The notes under the pieces were generated by a model. The model was not told the origin of the DNA. It ran no database searches and saw nothing but the letters and a program-made list of their open reading frames with translations. A stretch of 12,194 bases of DNA from NCBI GenBank assembly GCA_031372065.1, contig JANMKN010000326.1, positions 1 through 12,194 on the forward strand. The letters are read 5' to 3'. The position numbers were made by a program, and so were the translations under genes. Origin of the DNA: Abditibacteriaceae bacterium. Lineage in GTDB: Bacteria; Armatimonadota; Abditibacteriia; Abditibacteriales; Abditibacteriaceae. Positions 2,910 through 12,194 of the stretch are shown here, piece by piece; position 1 is the first letter of the stretch; each line of letters begins with the position of its first letter.

Positions 2910-3151
2910 AACCTCTTGCAAAAGGAGAGAAAAGCGGGACTGACGCACTATTTGGCGCATTTCACAGGCGATTAGGAGTTACGCAGTGGGTTATCAGCGC
3001 GGCAAAGGTGGCCGCAAAGTGGCTTGGGCGCGATGGCATCTTGAAATACCACTTAATAAGGAGATTTTAATCTTGTCTTAGGTTTTTTCGTTGAACTTTC
3101 CAGCGGCCTTTCATTTGCATTTTGGTGATGCGAAGTTTTAAGGACAACATT

Positions 3152-4225
3152 ATGAAAATGCCCAGTGGGAAAGAGTTCGTTGAACTCTTAAAAGATAGTT
3201 GCGCCGAGTTCAGCGAGGATAAAGCGCCGCGTTTGGGCGCGGCTTTGTCGTATTACACCATTTTTTCAATGGCGCCTTTGTTGGTTGTCATAATGGGCCT
3301 TGTGGGCTTGTTTTATTCGGGCGCGGATGCCGCGTTGCAAAAGCAAATTGCCGATATGGTGGGTGAAAGCGCCGCGAGTGCCATTTCCGATATTTTGAAA
3401 AATGCCCATCAAAACAAAACCGGCGGCATCGTGGCGACGATTATGGGCACGATTACGCTTTTATTGGGTGCGGGTGGCCTTTTTGGGCAGTTGCAGGACG
3501 CGCTGAACACGATTTGGGAAGTGCAACCAAAGCCGGGTCAAGGCTTTATGGCGATGATTAAAAATCGCTTTTTATCGTTTTCGATGGTGCTTTGCACAGG
3601 CTTCTTTTTGCTGGTTTCGTTGGTAGCGAACGCTTTGATTACCAGTCTCAGCACTTACATGGAAAGCGTGCTGCCAATTCCCGGTTTTGTCTTGCAATTA
3701 GTGAATTTCGTCGTGGCTTTTGCTTTGATTACGTTGATGTTTGCGGCGATTTATAAAGAATTGCCGGACGCGGAAATCGGCTGGCGCGATGTTTGGGTCG
3801 GCGCGGCGATGACTTCGTTTTTGTTTGGCGTTGGCAAATATGCCCTGGGCCTTTATTTGGGCAAAAGCAGCGTTGGCTCGGCTTATGGCGCAGCGGGCAG
3901 CCTCGCCGTTTTGCTTTTATGGATTTATTACGCGTCGCAGATTTTGTTTTTCGGTGCGGAATTTACGCAGGTTTACGCAAAAAAATACGGCTCCAATATT
4001 TTGCCTTCGGATCACGCCGAAGCCGTGACTGCCGAAGCGCGGGCGCAACAAGGTATGAAGTCTGATAATTCGCCGGTGCCCGACGGCGCTTCTGTGGTTT
4101 TGCATCCGCAGGGCTTGGGCGACAAGCCGAAAACTGCAACGCAAAAAGATTTGGAATTTCTCTGGCCTGCCGCCGTTGGCTTCTTTGGCATTTTATTTTT
4201 GGCCGGACGCCGCCGAAAATCGTGA
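3152..4225 (+). CDS. YihY/virulence factor BrkB family inner-membrane protein
   Basis: Family-typical motifs RLGAALSYYTIFSMAPLL, LQDALNTIWEV, IYKELPDAEIGWRDVWVGA, SAYGAAGSLAVLLLWIYYASQILFFGAEF and several hydrophobic helices. AAGGA RBS at 3140-3144 favours ATG 3152 over TTG 3122. Confidence 0.92.
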   Translation: MKMPSGKEFVELLKDSCAEFSEDKAPRLGAALSYYTIFSMAPLLVVIMGLVGLFYSGADAALQKQIADMVGESAASAISDILKNAHQNKTGGIVATIMGTITLLLGAGGLFGQLQDALNTIWEVQPKPGQGFMAMIKNRFLSFSMVLCTGFFLLVSLVANALITSLSTYMESVLPIPGFVLQLVNFVVAFALITLMFAAIYKELPDAEIGWRDVWVGAAMTSFLFGVGKYALGLYLGKSSVGSAYGAAGSLAVLLLWIYYASQILFFGAEFTQVYAKKYGSNILPSDHAEAVTAEARAQQGMKSDNSPVPDGASVVLHPQGLGDKPKTATQKDLEFLWPAAVGFFGILFLAGRRRKS

Positions 4226-4293
4226 GGCAAAAGCGTTTTACAAGACGCATCCAAGCTGTCCACTCGCCGCTTATCACTATATTGTGCTTTTTC

Positions 4294-4321
4294 GCCCGCC
4301 CAAAAGCGGGCTTTTGGTTTT
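4294..4321 (+). terminator. Probable intrinsic terminator after the YihY gene
   Basis: GCCCGC (4294-4299) / GCGGGC (4306-4311) stem, 6-nt loop, followed by TTTTGGTTTT. Confidence 0.55.
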
Positions 4322-4331
4322 ACCTATGCGC

Positions 4332-4361
4332 TTGCCTTGTTAAAATTTTTTGTGCTATAAT
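4332..4361 (+). promoter_or_regulatory. Sigma70-type promoter for gltBD
   Basis: TTGCCT (4332-4337), 18-nt spacer, perfect TATAAT (4356-4361) with extended -10 TG at 4353-4354. Predicted transcription start ~4367-4368. Confidence 0.75.
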
Positions 4362-4367
4362 GCGCGG

Positions 4368-4546
4368 CTCAGAGCGATTATTTCCAGACGGAATTTTCAG
4401 GCCCCGAATTGCGATGAGATTGGCAACGGCGGGCGCAGGCAGCCTCCGACACAGCACAGATTAACAATTCGATTGCAGCTTCTGAGAGGCTTTCGCCGGC
4501 AAAAAGTAAGTCCGGCGAGGGCCGCTTTGTTCTTTGATTTTTGTTT
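4368..4546 (+). promoter_or_regulatory. Structured 5' leader of gltB: candidate riboswitch or attenuator with terminator and antiterminator
   Basis: Nested stems CTCAGAG(4368-4374)/TTCTGAG(4480-4486) and CGAATTG(4405-4411)/CAATTCG(4465-4471). Terminator-like stem 4488-4499/4512-4523 with T-rich tail. Alternative pairing of 4427-4446 with 4486-4498. I do not recognise it as a known family. Confidence 0.5.
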
Positions 4547-4586
4547 AGTGATGCTGCACTTTAGACGATTTGAGAAAGGTGAGACG

Positions 4587-7500
4587 ATGACGTTTCCCAC
4601 TACAAAAAAAGGTGTTCCTGCCCGTCAGGGACTTTACGACCCTCGCCATGAACACGATGCGTGTGGCATTGGTGCGGTTGTGCATATCAAAGGCGCCAAG
4701 TCGCATTCTATTGTGCGTCAGGGACTTCAGATTTTGGTCAACCTCGACCATCGCGGCGCTCGCGGCGCCGAAGTTTGCACGGGCGATGGCGCGGGCATTT
4801 TACTGCAAATGCCTCACGACTTTTTCACCTCTGTCGTGGAAGGTTTCACCTTGCCCGAAATCGGCGCTTATGGCGTCGGATTTTTGTTTTTGCCCAAAGA
4901 CGACGCGCAGCGCGCAGCACAAGAACAAAAGCTCGCGGCTATCATCGCCGAAGAAGGCCAAATCGTCCTCGGTTGGCGCACTGTGCCGACTAATAATGCG
5001 GATTTAGGCCAATCGGCGATTGATGCCGAACCGTCCATGCGTCAGGTTTTCATTGGCCGCAGCGCGCAAGTCTTCGCAAAGCAAGAAAGCGATGCGCTGG
5101 CGTTCGAGCGCAAACTTTATGTCATCCGCAAGCGCGCCGAGCATGAAATCCATTACTCCAAAATGCCGGGCGGCGACGATTTCTATGTGCCCAGTTTGTC
5201 CGCGAAAACTATCGTTTACAAAGGTATGCTGACGCCCGATCAGGTGGATTCCTATTTTCCTGATCTGAGCGATGAACGCATGGTGTCGGCGCTGGCTTTA
5301 GTCCATTCACGTTTCTCCACCAACACATTTCCCAACTGGGATCGCTCACATCCTTATCGTTATATCATTCACAACGGCGAAATCAATACTTTGCGCGGCA
5401 ATGCCAACTGGATGTTCGCGCGGCAAAAACAGGTGGCTTCGGAAGTCTTCGGCGAAGACCTCGAAAAATTGTTTCCCGTCATTGATACGGATTCCAGCGA
5501 TTCGGGCCAGTTCGACAACGTGCTGGAATTCCTTTATCTTGGCGGGCGGCCATTGGCGCAGGCCGTCATGATGATGATTCCTGAGCCGTGGGCCAAACAC
5601 GAAGGTATGAGCGCCGAAAAGCGCGCCTTTTATAATTATCACGCGAGTTTGATGGAGCCGTGGGACGGCCCCGCTTCGATTGGTTTCACCGATGGCACCA
5701 GTTTGGGCGCGGTTTTGGATCGCAATGGACTTCGTCCGTCGCGCTTTTATGTGACCAGCGATGACTTGGTAATTTTGGCCTCGGAAGCGGGTGTTTTGGA
5801 TGTTGACCCAGCCAAAGTTGTCCAAAAAGGCCGTTTGCAGCCGGGTCGTATATTTTTGGTGGACACCGAAGCCGGACGCATCATTGGCGACGAGGAAATC
5901 AAACAAAAATTTGCGAGCGAATATCCGTATCGTGAATGGCTTGAGGCGAATCTCAAAAAACTCGAAGATTTGCCGCCCGCCGAAAATGTTCCACAGCCTG
6001 ATCATCACACGATTTTGCAGCGCCAACTGGCGTTTGGTTACACCTTTGAAGAATTGCAGATGATTATTGGCCCGATGGCACTCAATGGCATTGAACCGGT
6101 TGGTTCGATGGGCAACGATGCGCCGCTGGCCATTCTTTCGCGCAAACCGCAACTGCTGTCGTCGTATTTCAAACAGTTGTTCGCGCAGGTGACGAATCCG
6201 CCGATTGATGCCATCCGCGAGGAAATTATCACTGGCACCAATTTGCGTTTGGGCGCCGAAGGCAATTTGCTAAAACCAACGCCGGAAAGTTGCCGCCAAA
6301 TCGAAGTCGAAAACCCGTTTTTGTCGAATGAAGAATTGGCAAAGCTGCGCGATTATAGCGCGCCCGGCTTCCAAAGTGTGACGCTGCCGATTTTATTCGA
6401 CCCGCGCACCGACGGCGATGGCCTTGAAAAAGCGTTGGACGATTTATTCGCGCAGGCCGATAAAGCCATCGAAGACGGCGCCACGATTTTAATTTTGTCG
6501 GATAGAGGCGTGGACGAAAAACGGGCGCCGATTCCGTCGCTTTTAGCGTCGGCGGGCTTGCATCATCACTTAATCCGTCAGGGCACGCGCACCAAAATCG
6601 GTTTGGTTTTGGAAAGCGGTGAGCCGCGCGATGTGCATCAATTCGCCACGCTGATTGGCTACGGCGTCAGCGCTATCAACCCGTATCTGGCGTTTGAAAC
6701 CTTAGACGACATGATTCGCAGCGAAATGCTCAAAGGCATCAAGCACGAATACGCCGTCGAAAAATTCAAAAAAGCGGCTGTCAAAGGCGTTGTGAAAACG
6801 ATGGCTAAAATGGGCATCTCGACCATTCAAAGCTATTGCGGCGCGCAGATTTTTGAAGCGGTGGGCTTGTCTTCGGCGCTGATTGACAAGTATTTCACAT
6901 GGACAAGTTCGCGCGTCGAAGGCATCGGCCTCAAAGAAATCGCCGAAGAAATTCGCACGCGCCACGAACGCGCTTATCCGCCGCGCGATATTGAAGTGGA
7001 TCAGACATTGGACGCTGGTGGGCAGTATCAATGGCGTCGCCACGGCGAGTTTCACACTTTCAATCCGCAAACTGTCCATAAGTTGCAACAGGCCTGTCGG
7101 CGCGGTAGTTATGAAGCATTTAAAGATTACACGCGCTTGTTGAACGAAGAAGCCACGCAAGCCAACAATTTGCGCGGACTTTTGGAGTTTAAATTCGCCG
7201 AAAATCCGATTTCGATTGACGAAGTGGAATCGGTAGAGGAAATCGTCAAGCGTTTCAAAACCGGCGCCATGAGCTACGGCTCCATTTCCGGCGAAGCGCA
7301 CGAAGCCTTAGCTATTGCCATGAACCGTTTGGGCGGCAAAAGCAATACGGGCGAAGGCGGCGAAGACCCAGCGCGTTATTTCCCCGAAGCCAACGGCGAC
7401 TCGAAAAACTCGGCGATTAAACAAGTCGCGTCGGGGCGTTTTGGCGTGACCAGCAATTATCTGGTCAACGCCAAAGAATTGCAAATCAAAATGGCCCAAG

Positions 7501-9209
7501 GCGCCAAGCCGGGCGAAGGCGGTCAGTTGCCGGGCAGCAAAGTTTATCCGTGGATCGCCAAAGTGCGCGGCGCGACGCCGGGCGTCGGCCTGATTTCTCC
7601 GCCACCGCATCACGATATTTATTCGATTGAAGACCTCGCGGAACTGATTCACGATCTGAAAAATTCCAACACCAAAGCACGCGTTAGCGTGAAGTTGGTG
7701 TCGGAAGTGGGCGTCGGCACTATTGCGGCGGGCGTTGCCAAAGCCAAAGCCGATGTGGTTCTCATTTCTGGCTACGAAGGCGGCACAGGCGCCTCACCAC
7801 AATCGAGCATCTGGCACGCCGGTTTGCCGTGGGAATTGGGCCTTGCCGAAACGCATCAAACGCTGCTCCTCAACGATTTGCGCTCGCGTATTGCTGTTGA
7901 AACCGACGGCAAACTCATGACGGGCCGCGATGTGGCAGTGGCGGCGCTGCTCGGCGCAGAGGAATTTGGTTTTGCCACCGCGCCGTTGGTGGTTTTGGGC
8001 TGCATTATGATGCGGGTTTGCCATTTGGACACTTGTCCGGTTGGCGTGGCGACGCAAAACCCAGAGCTTCGCAAGCTTTTCATGGGCGACCCCGATCACG
8101 TTGTCAACTTCATGAAATTCATCGCGCAGGATTTGCGCGAATACATGGCGAAACTCGGTTTTAAAACTATCAACGAAATGGTGGGCCGCACCGATAAATT
8201 AGAGCCGCGCAAAGCCCTCGAACACTTCGAAGGACGCGGTTTGGATTTGTCGGCGCTGCTTTACAAGCCCGAAGTCGGCGAAAATGTCGGCACATTTTGC
8301 CAGAAGCCGCAAGATCATGGCTTGGAGCGCACTTTAGACCAAAAAGAACTGCTGGGCGCCTGCAAAGCGGCCATCGAACGCGGCGAAAAAGTCGAATATG
8401 CGACGGAAGTGAAGAACGTCAATCGTGTCGTCGGCACGCAACTCGGCAGCGAAATCACCCGTCATCATGGGCCGGAAGGCTTGCCAGATGACACCATCAA
8501 AATCAAGTTCAGCGGCTCGGCAGGCCAGAGTTTCGGCGCGTTTATGCCCAAAGGCATTACCTTTGAACTCGAAGGCGACATCAACGATTATTTCGGCAAA
8601 GGTTTAAGTGGCGCGAAACTGATTGTTTATCCGCCCGCGCAAAGCACTTTCACGCCGGAAGACAACATTATCATCGGCAACGTGGCCTTTTATGGCGCGA
8701 CGGCTGGCGAAGCCTACATTAGCGGCATGGCGGGCGAACGTTTTTGCGTGCGCAATTCGGGCGTGAACGCAGTTGTCGAAGCGGTTGGCGATCATGGCTG
8801 CGAATATATGACCGGCGGGCGCGTTGTTGTGCTGGGAAAAACCGGACGCAACTTCGCGGCAGGCATGAGCGGCGGCATCGCTTATGTGCTGGACGAAAGC
8901 GGCGATTTTCCGGCTCACGTCAACAAAGAAATGGTCGCACTTGAACCGCTGGAAGATGTCGAAGAAGTGTTAGCAGTGCGCGCCCAAATTGGGCGCCATG
9001 TAGATTATACAAGCAGCAAGCGCGGCCAATATGTGCTGGACAACTGGGACACCCTTGTCGCGAAGTTTGTTAAAGTGATGCCCATTGACTTCAAGCGCGC
9101 CATGGAAGCCATGAAGCGCATCGAAGCACAAGGTTTAAGCGGCGACGAAGCTGTCATGGCCGCCTTTGAAGAAAACAAAAAAGACCCGTCCCGCGTGGGT
9201 GGAAGCTAA
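4587..9209 (+). CDS. gltB: Glutamate synthase large subunit
   Basis: EHDACGIG (Ntn amidotransferase Cys), [50 protein letters not shown], [3Fe-4S] motif [15 protein letters not shown] and C-terminal GXGXG beta-helix. RBS AAAGGTGA at 4575-4582 supports ATG 4587 (1540 aa) over the 4350 start in the ORF track. Confidence 0.98.
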
Positions 9210-9295: not shown

Positions 9296-10777
9296 ATGGG
9301 AAAGCCCACTGGCTTTTTAGAATATCAGCGGCAATTGCCCGAAGATCGTGACCCGCAAAAGCGGGTCGGCGATTGGTTTGAATTTCACGAGCATCTTTCG
9401 GAAGAAACGATGCGCGATCAAGGCGCGCGCTGCATGAACTGCGGCGTGCCATTTTGTCACACCGGCACGCTAATTAACAACATGGCGTCCGGTTGCCCGA
9501 TTAACAACCTCATTCCCGAATGGAATGATTTGGTTTATCGCGGCCTGTGGAAAGAAGCCGCCGAGCGCTTATTCAAAACTAATAACTTCCCGGAATTTAC
9601 CGGACGTGTGTGCCCCGCGCCCTGCGAAGGCGCTTGCGTTTTGGGCATTCATTCGCCGCCAGTTACCATTAAAAATATCGAATGCGAAATCGCTGACCGC
9701 GCCTATGAAAACGATTGGGTAGATGGCAAACCGCGCAAGCGCACGGGCAAAAAAGTCGCGGTTGTTGGCAGCGGCCCATCGGGTTTGGCGTGCGCCGATC
9801 AATTGAACAAAGCCGGTCACTCCGTTACCGTTTTCGAGCGCGCCGACCGCATTGGCGGGCTGCTCATGTATGGCATTCCCAACATGAAATTGGACAAGCG
9901 TATTGTGCAGTCACGCGTGGACATGATGGCCGAAAACGGTGTGGCATTCGTCACGAATTGCGAAATCGGCAAAGATAAAACCGCCACGGAATTGCAAAAC
10001 GAATTCGACGCCGTTGTCATTTGCACCGGCGCCACCAAAGCGCGCGATTTAACTATCGAAGGCCGCGAAGCCAAAGGCATCCATTACGCGATGGATTTCC
10101 TGCGCGCCAACACCAAATCGCTGCTCGATTCCAAGCACGAAGATAAGAATTACATCTCGGCCAAAGACAAAGACGTGATCGTCATCGGCGGCGGCGATAC
10201 CGGCACCGACTGCTGTGGAACTTCACTGCGTCACGGCTGCCGCAGCCTTGTGCAATTTGAAATCATGCCGCAACTGCCGGGCGAACGCGCCGGTGACAAT
10301 CCGTGGCCGCAATGGCCGCGCATTCATCGCGTGGATTACGGTCAGGAAGAAGCCATCGCGCTTTACGGCGCCGACCCGCGCCGCTACGCCATCATGACCA
10401 AGCGCTTCGTGTCGGACGAAGACGGCAATTTGAAAGAATTGCACACCGTTCAAATCGAGTGGCAGAAAAACGAAAAAGGCGCCTTCGTGCCGGTCGAAAA
10501 AGCCGGAACGGAAAAAGTCTGGCCCGCGCAATTAGTCCTCATCGCGATGGGCTTTTTAGGCCCCGAAGACATCGTTTTGGAGCAACTCGGCATCGAACGC
10601 GACCCACGCAGCAACGCCAAAGCCGAACACGAAAAATACACCACCAATGCCGAAGGCATCTTCGCCGCCGGTGACTGCCGTCGCGGTCAAAGCCTCGTCG
10701 TGTGGGCCATCAACGAAGGCCGTGGCGCCGCCCGCGAATGCGACCGCTTCCTCATGGGCGAAACCCAATTGCCGTAG
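9296..10777 (+). CDS. gltD: Glutamate synthase small subunit (probably NADH-type)
   Basis: N-terminus [10 protein letters not shown], Fe-S motifs CMNCGVPFC and [15 protein letters not shown] motif VVGSGPSG, nucleotide motif [10 protein letters not shown] followed by acidic VQFEI, and [25 protein letters not shown] at 9287-9290 supports ATG 9296. Confidence 0.98.
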
Positions 10778-10839: not shown

Positions 10840-11397
10840 TTATGGAATACGCCAGAGTTCGTCACAGGCGCTGGTAAGTGATGGAGGGCAGTCAGCGGGC
10901 AAAGGTTCGCGCGGCCAAGTGAGGTTCGCAAAACGTGCTGGGGCTTCATTTATCTCAGTTTGCGAGCAACGTGATTTGTAGTCGGTTTTTTCATCTACAC
11001 TGTTGCCTGCAAGATAATGAATCCACGTTTCAATGTTGCGGCGCGGGATAACAAAAAAGATTGGTTCGTCGTGGCGTCGGGCTGGTTTATCTGCTTCGAC
11101 TAATTTAGCATCTAAAACCGCAATACGCTCGGCCACTGTTAAATTATCGGCATCAGCTACGACAACGAGAACACCTGAGCGGCGTGAAAGGATAGCACGC
11201 AAACCTTCGACTTCCTTCGCATAATCTTCATAAAGTCGCGTTAAACCGCCTGTCCTACTGTCAGATTCATTGCTGCGCCTTTTGTATTCAATGCGAATTT
11301 GATGATGTGAATAGCCCCGTTTTCTAAGGTGCTTCCACAGTAAAGTTTGTTGGTTAACATCTTCAACGATGCCTACGACTATTGCAGGTCGGTTCAC
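10840..11397 (-). CDS. TOPRIM-like protein (DUF4276/RloB/DUF4435-like), partner of the adjacent ATPase
   Basis: 185 aa from GTG 11397, overlapping the ATPase TGA (GTGA). Strand-acidic motif IVVGIVED, DxD motif VLVVVADAD and IPRRNIETW match TOPRIM-fold partners of AAA_15/AAA_21 ATPases. The exact family cannot be fixed without an HMM search. Confidence 0.7.
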   Translation of the reverse strand: MNRPAIVVGIVEDVNQQTLLWKHLRKRGYSHHQIRIEYKRRSNESDSRTGGLTRLYEDYAKEVEGLRAILSRRSGVLVVVADADNLTVAERIAVLDAKLVEADKPARRHDEPIFFVIPRRNIETWIHYLAGNSVDEKTDYKSRCSQTEINEAPARFANLTWPREPLPADCPPSLTSACDELWRIP

Positions 11398-12194
11398 GAT
11401 TCCCAACCCCGCGCCATAATTTCCGCCGGAGCCAACGGCGAATTGCCTTGCTCCCACGATTTAATGCGCACTGGCCCGCCCGCGTCGCGCTCGAAAACCA
11501 CGCCATTTTCCGGCGCTAACATATTGATGAATTCGGGATGATGCGAAATCAAAATCACTTGCCCGCCTTTTTCTTCGAGGCGCTCTTGCAACAACATCAG
11601 CCACGGCTGCAATTCGCGCAAAGCGATGTAGTTTTCCGGCTCATCAATCACCAAAGTCACGCCTTCTTCCAAAGTGCAAAAAAGCAACGTATAAAGCCCG
11701 ATTAAAGCGCGTTGACCATCGGAAAGTTCGTCGAAGCTGTAGCGTAAGGGGCTTTTTGATACGCCGTTCTGATTCGTGCGACGACAATTAATTTGTAAAT
11801 CGCGGCGTGCTTCCTCGAAATCTTCCGAAACTGCAAAAGAATCGAAGTTTGTAATTACTTCACGCAACAGTGGCAACAACTCAAAAATCTGACCTTGCTT
11901 TTGCTGCAAAAGATAAAGGTAATAGGAAGCAAATTCAGATAAATCAAAGTTAGAACGCTTAATAGCGCGCTTGACTTGAGAGGTCATTAAAGGCGAATTT
12001 ATTTTGATATAATGGAAGCCTTGTAGATACTCCGCATATCTTGTTCTTTCAAATGCACTGTGGTTGTTATTACCTAAAGAGTATTCGCCATCAATGTCTA
12101 ATCCTTGAATAGCGCGGACTCCATTCTGGTGCTGTTCCTCGCTATCTGGATCAAAATCGATCCATCGCACCGTCATGTCGCGATCGGCGGCGAC
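11394..12194 (-). CDS. ABC/SMC-superfamily AAA_21/AAA_15-type ATPase, C-terminal part (5' end outside window)
   Basis: Signature-like ELSDGQRAL, Walker B/D-loop LVIDEPENYI, H-loop VILISHHPEFIN. The frame stays open from 12176 to the window edge (VAADRD) and no Walker A is visible, so the gene starts beyond 12194. Confidence 0.88.
   Translation of the reverse strand, partial: VAADRDMTVRWIDFDPDSEEQHQNGVRAIQGLDIDGEYSLGNNNHSAFERTRYAEYLQGFHYIKINSPLMTSQVKRAIKRSNFDLSEFASYYLYLLQQKQGQIFELLPLLREVITNFDSFAVSEDFEEARRDLQINCRRTNQNGVSKSPLRYSFDELSDGQRALIGLYTLLFCTLEEGVTLVIDEPENYIALRELQPWLMLLQERLEEKGGQVILISHHPEFINMLAPENGVVFERDAGGPVRIKSWEQGNSPLAPAEIMARGWES

Follow-up and report, generated by a model that had tools for sequence, protein, structure and literature searches.

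A Probable Transcription Attenuator in the gltBD Leader of an Abditibacteriaceae Bacterium, with a Small Hairpin RNA as Its Possible Trigger

Introduction

The genes for the two subunits of glutamate synthase, gltB and gltD, follow a long 5′ leader in the Abditibacteriaceae genome studied here, and the question raised by this locus is twofold: can the leader decide whether transcription goes on into gltB, and, if so, what tips the decision? An original prediction, made from the letters of the DNA alone, had seen there an unrecognised riboswitch or attenuator, namely a promoter, a multi-stem domain, a terminator-like stem, and an antiterminator excluding the latter, which together would form an OFF switch sensing a nitrogen-status ligand or protein.

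The leader-peptide type of attenuator is found at trp, his, and ilv; antisense-RNA attenuation has plasmid examples in pT181 and pIP501, and DsrA, ArcZ, and RprA act on the premature termination of rpoS. In antisense-RNA attenuation, as summarised in PMC6524683, a cis-encoded RNA binding the nascent leader favours the terminator over the antiterminator. Trans-encoded small RNAs are described in PMC6582626 as affecting Rho-dependent termination with Hfq, the cases being SraL on rho and ChiX. Lastly, a gltD motif is described in PMC8632094 for Selenomonadales and Veillonellales, its final hairpin occluding the ribosome site.

Genomes, Locus, and Sequence Check

The window, i.e., the whole stretch of 12,194 nt analysed here, is contig C295 of the genome under study (G000); the genus comprises four genomes (G000–G003) and the family 27, and completeness is 94% for G000, 85% for G001, and 79% for G002. 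The leader is placed between a YihY-family gene (3122–4225) and gltB, with gltD coming after gltB, and a protein atlas search returned the GATase-2 family as its sole result. The leader sequence agrees without differences with the DNA contigs of runs X3 (4385–4900) and X4/X5 (4309–4459 and 4553–4703), and there are no variants of it across four DNA runs. Every motif that the original prediction had named is present and the pairings it had drawn are possible; coordinates are given in Table 1.

Other genes of the window deserve a mention. In the region of 836–2644 and 235–738, a gene for a GAF and HD-GYP-type protein (domains assigned by eye, weak match to a NosR-family phosphodiesterase) is preceded by a gene for a protein with repeated ERR/DRR motifs, which we take to resemble c-di-GMP-binding motifs. 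Convergent with gltD, on the minus strand at 10840–12194, lies an ABC/AAA-type ATPase fragment, and beside it a 205-aa protein for which no NCBIfam match was found.

Table 1. Features of the gltBD leader and of the loci associated with it (window coordinates unless a contig is named).
Feature	Position	Strand	Basis or remark
Upstream motif GCNG(C)TTAT(C/G)ACT(A/C)TA(T/A)T	4266–4284	+	Kept in 4 of 4 genus genomes
Likely terminator of the upstream YihY-family gene, outside the switch	4294–4321	+	
Predicted sigma-70-type promoter P1: TTGCCT (4332–4337), TG (4353–4354), TATAAT (4356–4361)	4332–4361	+	Start predicted near 4368
TG-n-TAAAAT in the P1 spacer	4338–4346	+	TGnTAAAAT in 4 of 4 genus genomes, n variable
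TGCGATG, including the ATG of the short ORF	4410–4416	+	Six Watson–Crick pairs and one U·G to the small-RNA loop
Short leader ORF, 16 codons, without Shine–Dalgarno	4414–4464	+	Frame kept across blocks A and B in G001 (14 aa) and in G002 (13 aa); expected by chance at 0.24–0.47 per genome
Inner hairpin (anti-antiterminator), block A (4427–4434) with block B (4441–4448)	4427–4448	+	−9.6 kcal/mol
Alternative antiterminator, block A with 4492–4498 and block B (4441–4446) with 4486–4491	4427–4498	+	Pairing in three genomes
Intrinsic-terminator-like hairpin (4488–4523), interrupted U-tail from 4524	4488–4532	+	Pairing, identity, folding
Shine–Dalgarno-like GAAAGGTGA of gltB	4574–4582	+	50 nt 3′ of the terminator hairpin
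gltB, glutamate synthase large subunit	4587–9209	+	NF008730, 1709 bits, over cut-off
gltD, glutamate synthase small subunit	9296–10777	+	TIGR01317, 783 bits, over cut-off
GlnR homologue, actinobacterial type	G000:C96:14874–15557 (L329:528–1211)		Directly 5′ of glnB-glnA
GlnR-box promoter and ~55-nt hairpin RNA with U-tail	G000:C88:15143–15246, RNA ~15190–15246 (L257, L258, L259)	+	

Promoter, Terminator, and Antiterminator

The promoter proposed for gltB is present as TTGCCT-18-TATAAT, with 10 of 12 consensus matches and a TG extension; 31 of 41 positions are identical in G000, G001, and G002, and TATAAT is also found in G003. Within its spacer, TG-n-TAAAAT may be an operator or else a second promoter of the extended −10 type that overlaps the first. 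The motif at 4266–4284, which is kept although the more distal upstream DNA differs in G001 and G003, could likewise be an operator or an additional −10 element.

The terminator stem comprises, as proposed, 12 bp including two G·U pairs, with one more pair past a bulge; its energy is −24.9 kcal/mol (z −3.2), a stability equalled by 1 of 200 shuffled sequences. Its U-tail, GCTTTGTTC, is interrupted, as had also been noted, and weak, with 4–5 U in 9. All cells of the stem pair in G000, G001, and G002. Across the same three genomes, 95% of the cells of the inner hairpin pair, with one two-sided change from C-G to U-A, and for the antiterminator 32 of 33 cells are paired and every change is one-sided. 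That changes in the terminator stem are one-sided only is what is expected of a strand with two partners. The three genomes are identical at 16 of 26 positions of blocks A and B; for the terminator, the figure is 38 of 46, compared with 11 of 38 for the spacer beside it.

Conserved upstream helices span 11 of the 13 bases of the terminator arm, a coverage reached by 4 of 1000 column shuffles in a test made on related sequences and designed after the helix had been seen. The antiterminator of G001 is lengthened by pairing between two insertions, one of 21 nt that follows block A and one of 36 nt that precedes the arm; this counts as one event. The best duplex between arm and upstream sequence in each genome is no stronger than chance (13–28% of shuffles as strong), and covariation among the three sequences is not above that of shuffles (289 of 500 as high). 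The comparison of orthologous leaders thus upheld one part of what had been expected, since promoter, inner hairpin, terminator, and antiterminator are conserved in two of three congeners, and not the other, covariation above shuffles. The proposed switch between terminator and antiterminator stands, in that the strands that must pair two ways are conserved. A promoter followed by a mutually exclusive terminator and antiterminator 5′ of the first gene, kept in relatives (three genomes), is the general plan of an attenuator and, judging from sequence, we consider it probable that the gltBD leader is a regulated transcription attenuator of one kind or another.

Distribution of the Leader

A DNA search of 61 genomes gave six matches, G000 included; the leader itself was matched only in G001 and G002, and the other three matches fall at or 3′ of the gltB start. 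The remaining congener, G003, is the most distant one (GltB 70% identical, against 83–86%); its leader is diverged, of equal length, and has the same promoter core and a terminator of its own. A covariance model of the core recovered, of 31 class genomes, just the 3 that it had been trained on and, of 121 sampled phylum genomes, G000 alone. A pattern for the gltB start found nothing in metagenome contigs. A scan for the GltB N-terminus kept 80 of 506 relatives, none of them more than 66% identical, and a leader profile run over the collected loci found no leader; its best match elsewhere was the G003 promoter (E 0.036). A loose antiterminator pattern hit at least 120 loci in genome contigs; among the matches listed, 2 of 120 carry gltB, and a single one, with the G002 arm sequence, lies 5′ of gltB. 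G000 itself was searched for a second copy of the leader, without success. Comparative statements on the leader all rest on three related sequences.

Predicted Order of Folding

In the folding model, with naked RNA and the 3′ arm of the terminator still unmade, the 5′ arm is paired upstream at about 0.7 in G000 and G002 and at 0.99 in G001. The antiterminator and hairpin states are predicted at −22.8 and −12.5 kcal/mol in G000, −11.1 and −10.0 in G002, and −47.0 and −27.4 in G001, respectively, with modelled barriers of 6.7–11.0 kcal/mol for passing from the hairpin to the antiterminator. Once the 3′ arm is complete, equilibrium favours the terminator in all the states tried (0.83–1.00 in the three genomes), so that any control would have to be kinetic and exerted within about 25 nt of transcription. 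Blocking the TGCGATG site lowers the predicted sequestration of the arm from 0.73 to 0.11 in G000 and from 0.99 to 0.75 in G001, and leaves it unchanged in G002, where the model has the arm held by partners other than block A.

A GlnR-Type Regulon in the Same Genome

The OmpR-type protein encoded 5′ of glnB has as its best PDB match the GlnR structure 8HIH (E 5e-39); 8HIH and 8HML are presented as GlnR structures in PMC10235972. Boxes of the form TTTAC-n6-GAAAC-n6-GAAAC stand 5′ of glnB, amt1, amt2, and a hairpin RNA, and are the genome's four top scores with a GlnR matrix built from 25 sites, all four of them belonging to its training set. No GlnR box was found at gltB, where the best upstream score is −0.8 bits against 18.6–36.6 for the training sites. 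Such 11-bp-periodic boxes occur in many family genomes. A fifth GlnR-type box was seen 5′ of a gene on contig C156. In three genomes of genus g2 (L275, L276, L278), a conserved leader of about 130 nt with shared blocks lies 3′ of a GlnR box; no Rfam family matched it at gathering score, and it may be a structured nitrogen-related RNA.

The actinobacterial GlnR regulon, as outlined in PMC10704036, is alike in its GlnR-like regulator and in its 11-bp-periodic boxes at glnB-glnA and amt. Saccharopolyspora GlnR is reported in the same source as a direct regulator of gltBD, whereas gltB has no box here and the link would have to run via an RNA. Nac repression of E. coli gltBD, also thought of as a parallel, was dropped, gltBD being given as without a substantial Nac response in PMC1784095.

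A Small Hairpin RNA under a GlnR-Type Box

On contig C88, a GlnR-type box with its −10 drives no protein gene and precedes a single hairpin 5′ of the second glnA. Among the 27 family genomes, this hairpin RNA was found only in G000, G001, and G002; it folds with a z of −5.0, its loop is invariant, the changes in its stem preserve pairing in the three genomes, and no Rfam family reaches its cut-off on it. The loop is complementary to the start regions of amt2, amt1, and glnA and to the glnB leader: when the 12-nt loop core was compared with 4147 5′ regions of G000, taken from crude gene calls of our own, amt2 came at rank 1 and glnB at rank 5, rank 2 being the opposite strand of the RNA itself. 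Matches of 7–12 nt at glnB, glnA, amt1, and amt2 are kept in 11 of the 11 regions examined in the three genomes; in G003, in which the hairpin RNA was not found, those at glnB, glnA, and the amt genes are shorter or absent. The string GCG-ATG-G opens 14 of 3466 ATG genes, glnA and amt2 included. At the sequence level, we find here what makes an independent small-RNA gene, i.e., a promoter, a terminator, and a conserved seed; this candidate RNA gene is likely to be real, and it is better supported than its link to gltB.

A few observations were made around this RNA. In the glnB leader (L327, L328, L329), the small-RNA site reads as an ORF of two codons, Met-Gly-stop, whose stop is TAA in two of the genomes and TGA in the third; it is absent from G003. 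A second exact copy of the loop sequence, intergenic and without a hairpin, sits in G001 (C462:1960–1974, minus strand; L312) 5′ of an unrelated exported-protein gene. Eight of 21 matches were inspected in a search for further copies; a G003 15-mer with a seemingly compensatory seed was rejected, as it falls within an open frame of 407 codons and shows neither hairpin nor box. Lastly, some 30–110 nt before the second glnA (L240–L243), directly 3′ of TAAAAT in 4 of 4 genomes, stands a strong hairpin flanked by A-rich sequence on its 5′ side and U-rich sequence on its 3′ side; it may terminate transcripts arriving from upstream or be a second leader element.

The Hairpin RNA as a Possible Trigger

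We tentatively propose, from sequence comparison, that the attenuator is tipped by the predicted ~55-nt hairpin RNA, likely under GlnR-type control, pairing with TGCGATG. As read in the sequence, transcription would start at a promoter without a GlnR box and run through blocks A and B and the terminator. According to the folding models, A and B would first form a weak hairpin and could refold onto the 5′ arm of the terminator while its 3′ arm is unmade, until the completed terminator displaces this pairing, which would make the decision kinetic. The separate C88 locus, with its GlnR-type box, −10, and hairpin with an invariant loop, would provide a predicted RNA whose loop is complementary to the 5′ regions of amt, glnB, glnA, and gltB. 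We infer as a last step that this loop may pair with the nascent gltB leader over the start of the short ORF and thereby tip the choice.

TGCGATG is the sole 7-mer common to the three gltB leaders 5′ of the terminator, and a 6-mer shared among them is matched by 0.5% of shuffled loops and 1% of random 12-mers. In G001 and G002, the loop could form seven Watson–Crick pairs with the base of the inner hairpin, a strength that in G000 would fall within the top 4% and 10% of regions, respectively; the match in the G000 leader, with six such pairs and a U·G, lies 12 nt further upstream and is in the top 37% (rank 1440 of 4147). The shared 7-mer is not at one aligned place, G000 having the upstream copy, G002 the downstream copy, and G001 both. 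The same 6-mer occurs in 65 of 1300 non-coding 120-nt windows, and the cimA leader, taken as a control, carries GCGATG in 3 of 3 genomes, G003 included. Co-folding, scored for 1700 of the 4147 regions and leaving G001 aside, yields at equilibrium only −1 to −2 kcal/mol; as it fails even for the perfect amt2 site, it has no bearing on the pairing. The joint absence of RNA and matches from G003, the most distant congener, amounts to one event; Hfq was not found in five of five genomes; and the link between the small RNA and gltB was spotted post hoc among 17 upstream regions.

A trans-acting small RNA, probably nitrogen-controlled, appears a more likely trigger on these sequence grounds than a metabolite-binding riboswitch. 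If the predicted RNA acts on the leader, its presence would be somewhat likelier to increase termination than to decrease it, because its best matches cover start codons, as those of a repressor would, and because blocking the site lowers arm sequestration in two of three models. The complete scheme, in which a chromosomal, trans-encoded, Hfq-independent RNA of ~55 nt, switched on by a GlnR-type regulator, would govern the nitrogen-assimilation module as a whole, masking the amt and glnA starts with a single anti-AUG loop and throwing the gltBD switch as it is transcribed, possibly by covering the upstream ORF, is more doubtful. The upstream ORF, which has no amino-acid-sensing codons, would in that scheme possibly do no more than place a ribosome.

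Alternative Triggers

A ribosome on the short ORF could act without any small RNA: by covering A and B, it would let the terminator form, and an early stall would leave the antiterminator free. The genome does use such a mechanism at cimA, with a leader peptide and a terminator. An ATG-initiated ORF running across block B and stopping before the terminator is found in 4 of 4 gltB leaders, although such an ORF also arises in 17–47% of shuffles, and the 12-nt and 21-nt length differences among G000, G001, and G002 keep the frame. The distance from the ORF stop to the terminator arm is 22, 71, and 8 nt in these genomes, respectively. In a footprint model, arm sequestration in G000 and G002 is 0.80 and 0.73 with the ribosome at the start and 0.17 and 0.28 with the ribosome at the stop; in G001, however, the antiterminator survives when the ribosome is placed at the stop (0.96). 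The ORF of G003 is near-leaderless, like that of cimA, and has two Gln codons, whereas in G000, G001, and G002 the ATGs are 47–113 nt inside the transcript. Nor do these three peptides have, unlike the cimA control, a Shine–Dalgarno or shared control codons; they contain no run of Asn, Gln, or Glu, and the conserved GCG before the ATG (found at 54 of 3466 starts) would go unexplained. Taking both sides together, we hold a ribosome-only trigger to be unlikely, though it is the chief competitor of the hairpin RNA.

Two other reading frames were discarded. CAG codons share a frame in the four leaders, as a Gln-codon leader peptide would have them, and this frame has no start in G000 and G002; a long frame that begins at 4350 and continues in phase into gltB was discarded because the relatives do not keep it. 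As for cimA (citramalate synthase; G000:C16 upstream of 13177, minus strand; L319, L320, L323), its Ile-rich leader peptide is encoded by a near-leaderless ORF with IIRI, kept in three of four genomes and followed by a terminator; G001 has different DNA with a tRNA-like sequence at this place.

There may also be no dedicated trigger, the hairpin being a leaky terminator or a pause hairpin with fixed read-through or a response to polymerase speed, perhaps releasing a leader RNA of about 165 nt. The weak U-tail, the terminator winning at equilibrium in every state, and covariation that is not significant would all agree with this, as would G008, in which a similar −10 region lies immediately 5′ of gltB with no leader at all. 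Such a passive element leaves unexplained, however, why blocks A and B are kept and remain complementary to the arm, as well as the paired insertions of G001 and the shared 7-mer, and it seems to us rather unlikely.

An RNA-binding protein from some unrecognised family, acting by stabilising one of the folds, is an improbable trigger. Conserved single-stranded blocks (CCCCGA, the CAG repeats, AAAA in the terminator loop) could bind one; the original prediction had left room for a protein sensor, but the usual candidates, ANTAR, HutP, TRAP, CAT_RBD (BglG/LicT), and GlpP, were not found in any of the five genomes searched (G000–G003 and G008, with G001 and G002 at 85% and 79% completeness). The search covered these five families; ANTAR exceeded its cut-off in 39 of 61 phylum genomes, and the controls for HutP, TRAP, CAT_RBD, and GlpP were positive too. 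We take GAGAGGCU to resemble a PyrR motif and AATTTTCAG a CodY motif; the PyrR look-alike was rejected, not being kept in G001 or G002.

The riboswitch reading, which places an aptamer for glutamine, glutamate, 2-oxoglutarate, or ppGpp in the 5′ 120 nt, fared worst. The multi-stem domain drawn at 4368–4487 does not fold beyond chance (z −0.51; 55 of 200 shuffles fold as well), the drawn minimum-energy structure makes up 0.7% of the ensemble, and the whole leader has a folding z of +0.44. Its outer stems, with 67–79% of cells paired across the three genomes, are not conserved: CTCAGAG/TTCTGAG loses its 3′ strand in G002, and TTCC/GGAA and CGAATTG/CAATTCG are 75% and 67% paired. The 5′ part is identical at only 24 of 45 positions among three close relatives and contains no conserved helix of at least 5 bp lying wholly inside the putative aptamer, and G001 breaks the proposed ligand-binding domain with four insertions of 13–41 nt. 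The expectation of no known family was borne out, no Rfam family reaching its gathering score anywhere in the window; up to an E of 10, there is only a chance match to anti-hemB (12.9 bits) on the upstream terminator, and the models of glnA (glutamine-I), Downstream-peptide (glutamine-II), and the ykkC clan do not match the leader. Even though the expression platform is of riboswitch type, two of the G001 insertions fall within predicted hairpin loops, and PMC8632094 places glutamine riboswitches and the gltD motif candidate 5′ of glutamate synthase genes, this lack of conservation and a leader model matching 3 of 31 class genomes and G000 alone of 121 phylum genomes make a new metabolite-binding riboswitch very improbable.

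Comparison with Known Systems

Returning to the hairpin RNA as trigger, the closest likeness is to antisense attenuation, in that an RNA pairing with the nascent leader would favour the terminator (PMC6524683). The RNAs known from that source are, however, cis-encoded and fully complementary, whereas the one considered here lies on another contig, would contact its target by 6–8 loop bases, and apparently has several nitrogen-gene targets. With the trans-acting sRNAs, it would share trans-encoding and a co-transcriptional action on a long 5′ leader; those of PMC6582626 are presented as Rho-dependent and Hfq-assisted, unlike the intrinsic-type hairpin here and the genomes in which Hfq was not found.

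Like leader-peptide attenuators, the gltB leader has a short ORF over the 5′ strand of the antiterminator, ending before the terminator; unlike them, it has, in G000, G001, and G002, no conserved control codons or start position, no Shine–Dalgarno, and no leaderless start. The T-box antiterminator motif, whose bulge reads UGGNACC, also has two helices with a 7-nt bulge in the 5′ strand and competes with a terminator, but the bulge here is CGCAGGC or CGTCGTC and not conserved. The T-box model RF00230 did not match the gltB leader and matched two other loci. These two T-box-like elements (G000:C16:4625–4946 and C222:21682–22022; 81 and 78 bits, below the 93-bit cut-off) have long inserted hairpins and stand 5′ of ilvC- and ilvB-like genes, named by eye. 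The gltD motif of PMC8632094 is alike as a structured leader 5′ of glutamate synthase genes and is set apart by its described layout and range, the hairpin here lying 50 nt 5′ of the ribosome site. The gltB leader is, in short, a member of no tested riboswitch, T-box, or ANTAR family. In the papers searched, we found no description of this gltB leader element, which large motif surveys may list in their supplements.

What the Switch Would Mean

Were the trigger a ribosome, or were there none, the element would be an attenuator confined to the genus and of modest interest, leaving the small RNA as a separate, better-supported find. RNA-driven attenuation, as far as PMC6524683 and PMC6582626 present it, has been described for cis-encoded antisense RNAs, and trans sRNAs have been described for Rho-dependent termination. 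If the tentative reading with the hairpin RNA holds, intrinsic termination would here be decided, in a natural chromosomal setting, by a trans-encoded RNA through a loop contact of 6–8 bases, and glutamate synthase would be tied to the GlnR-type nitrogen regulon of these bacteria without a GlnR box of its own.
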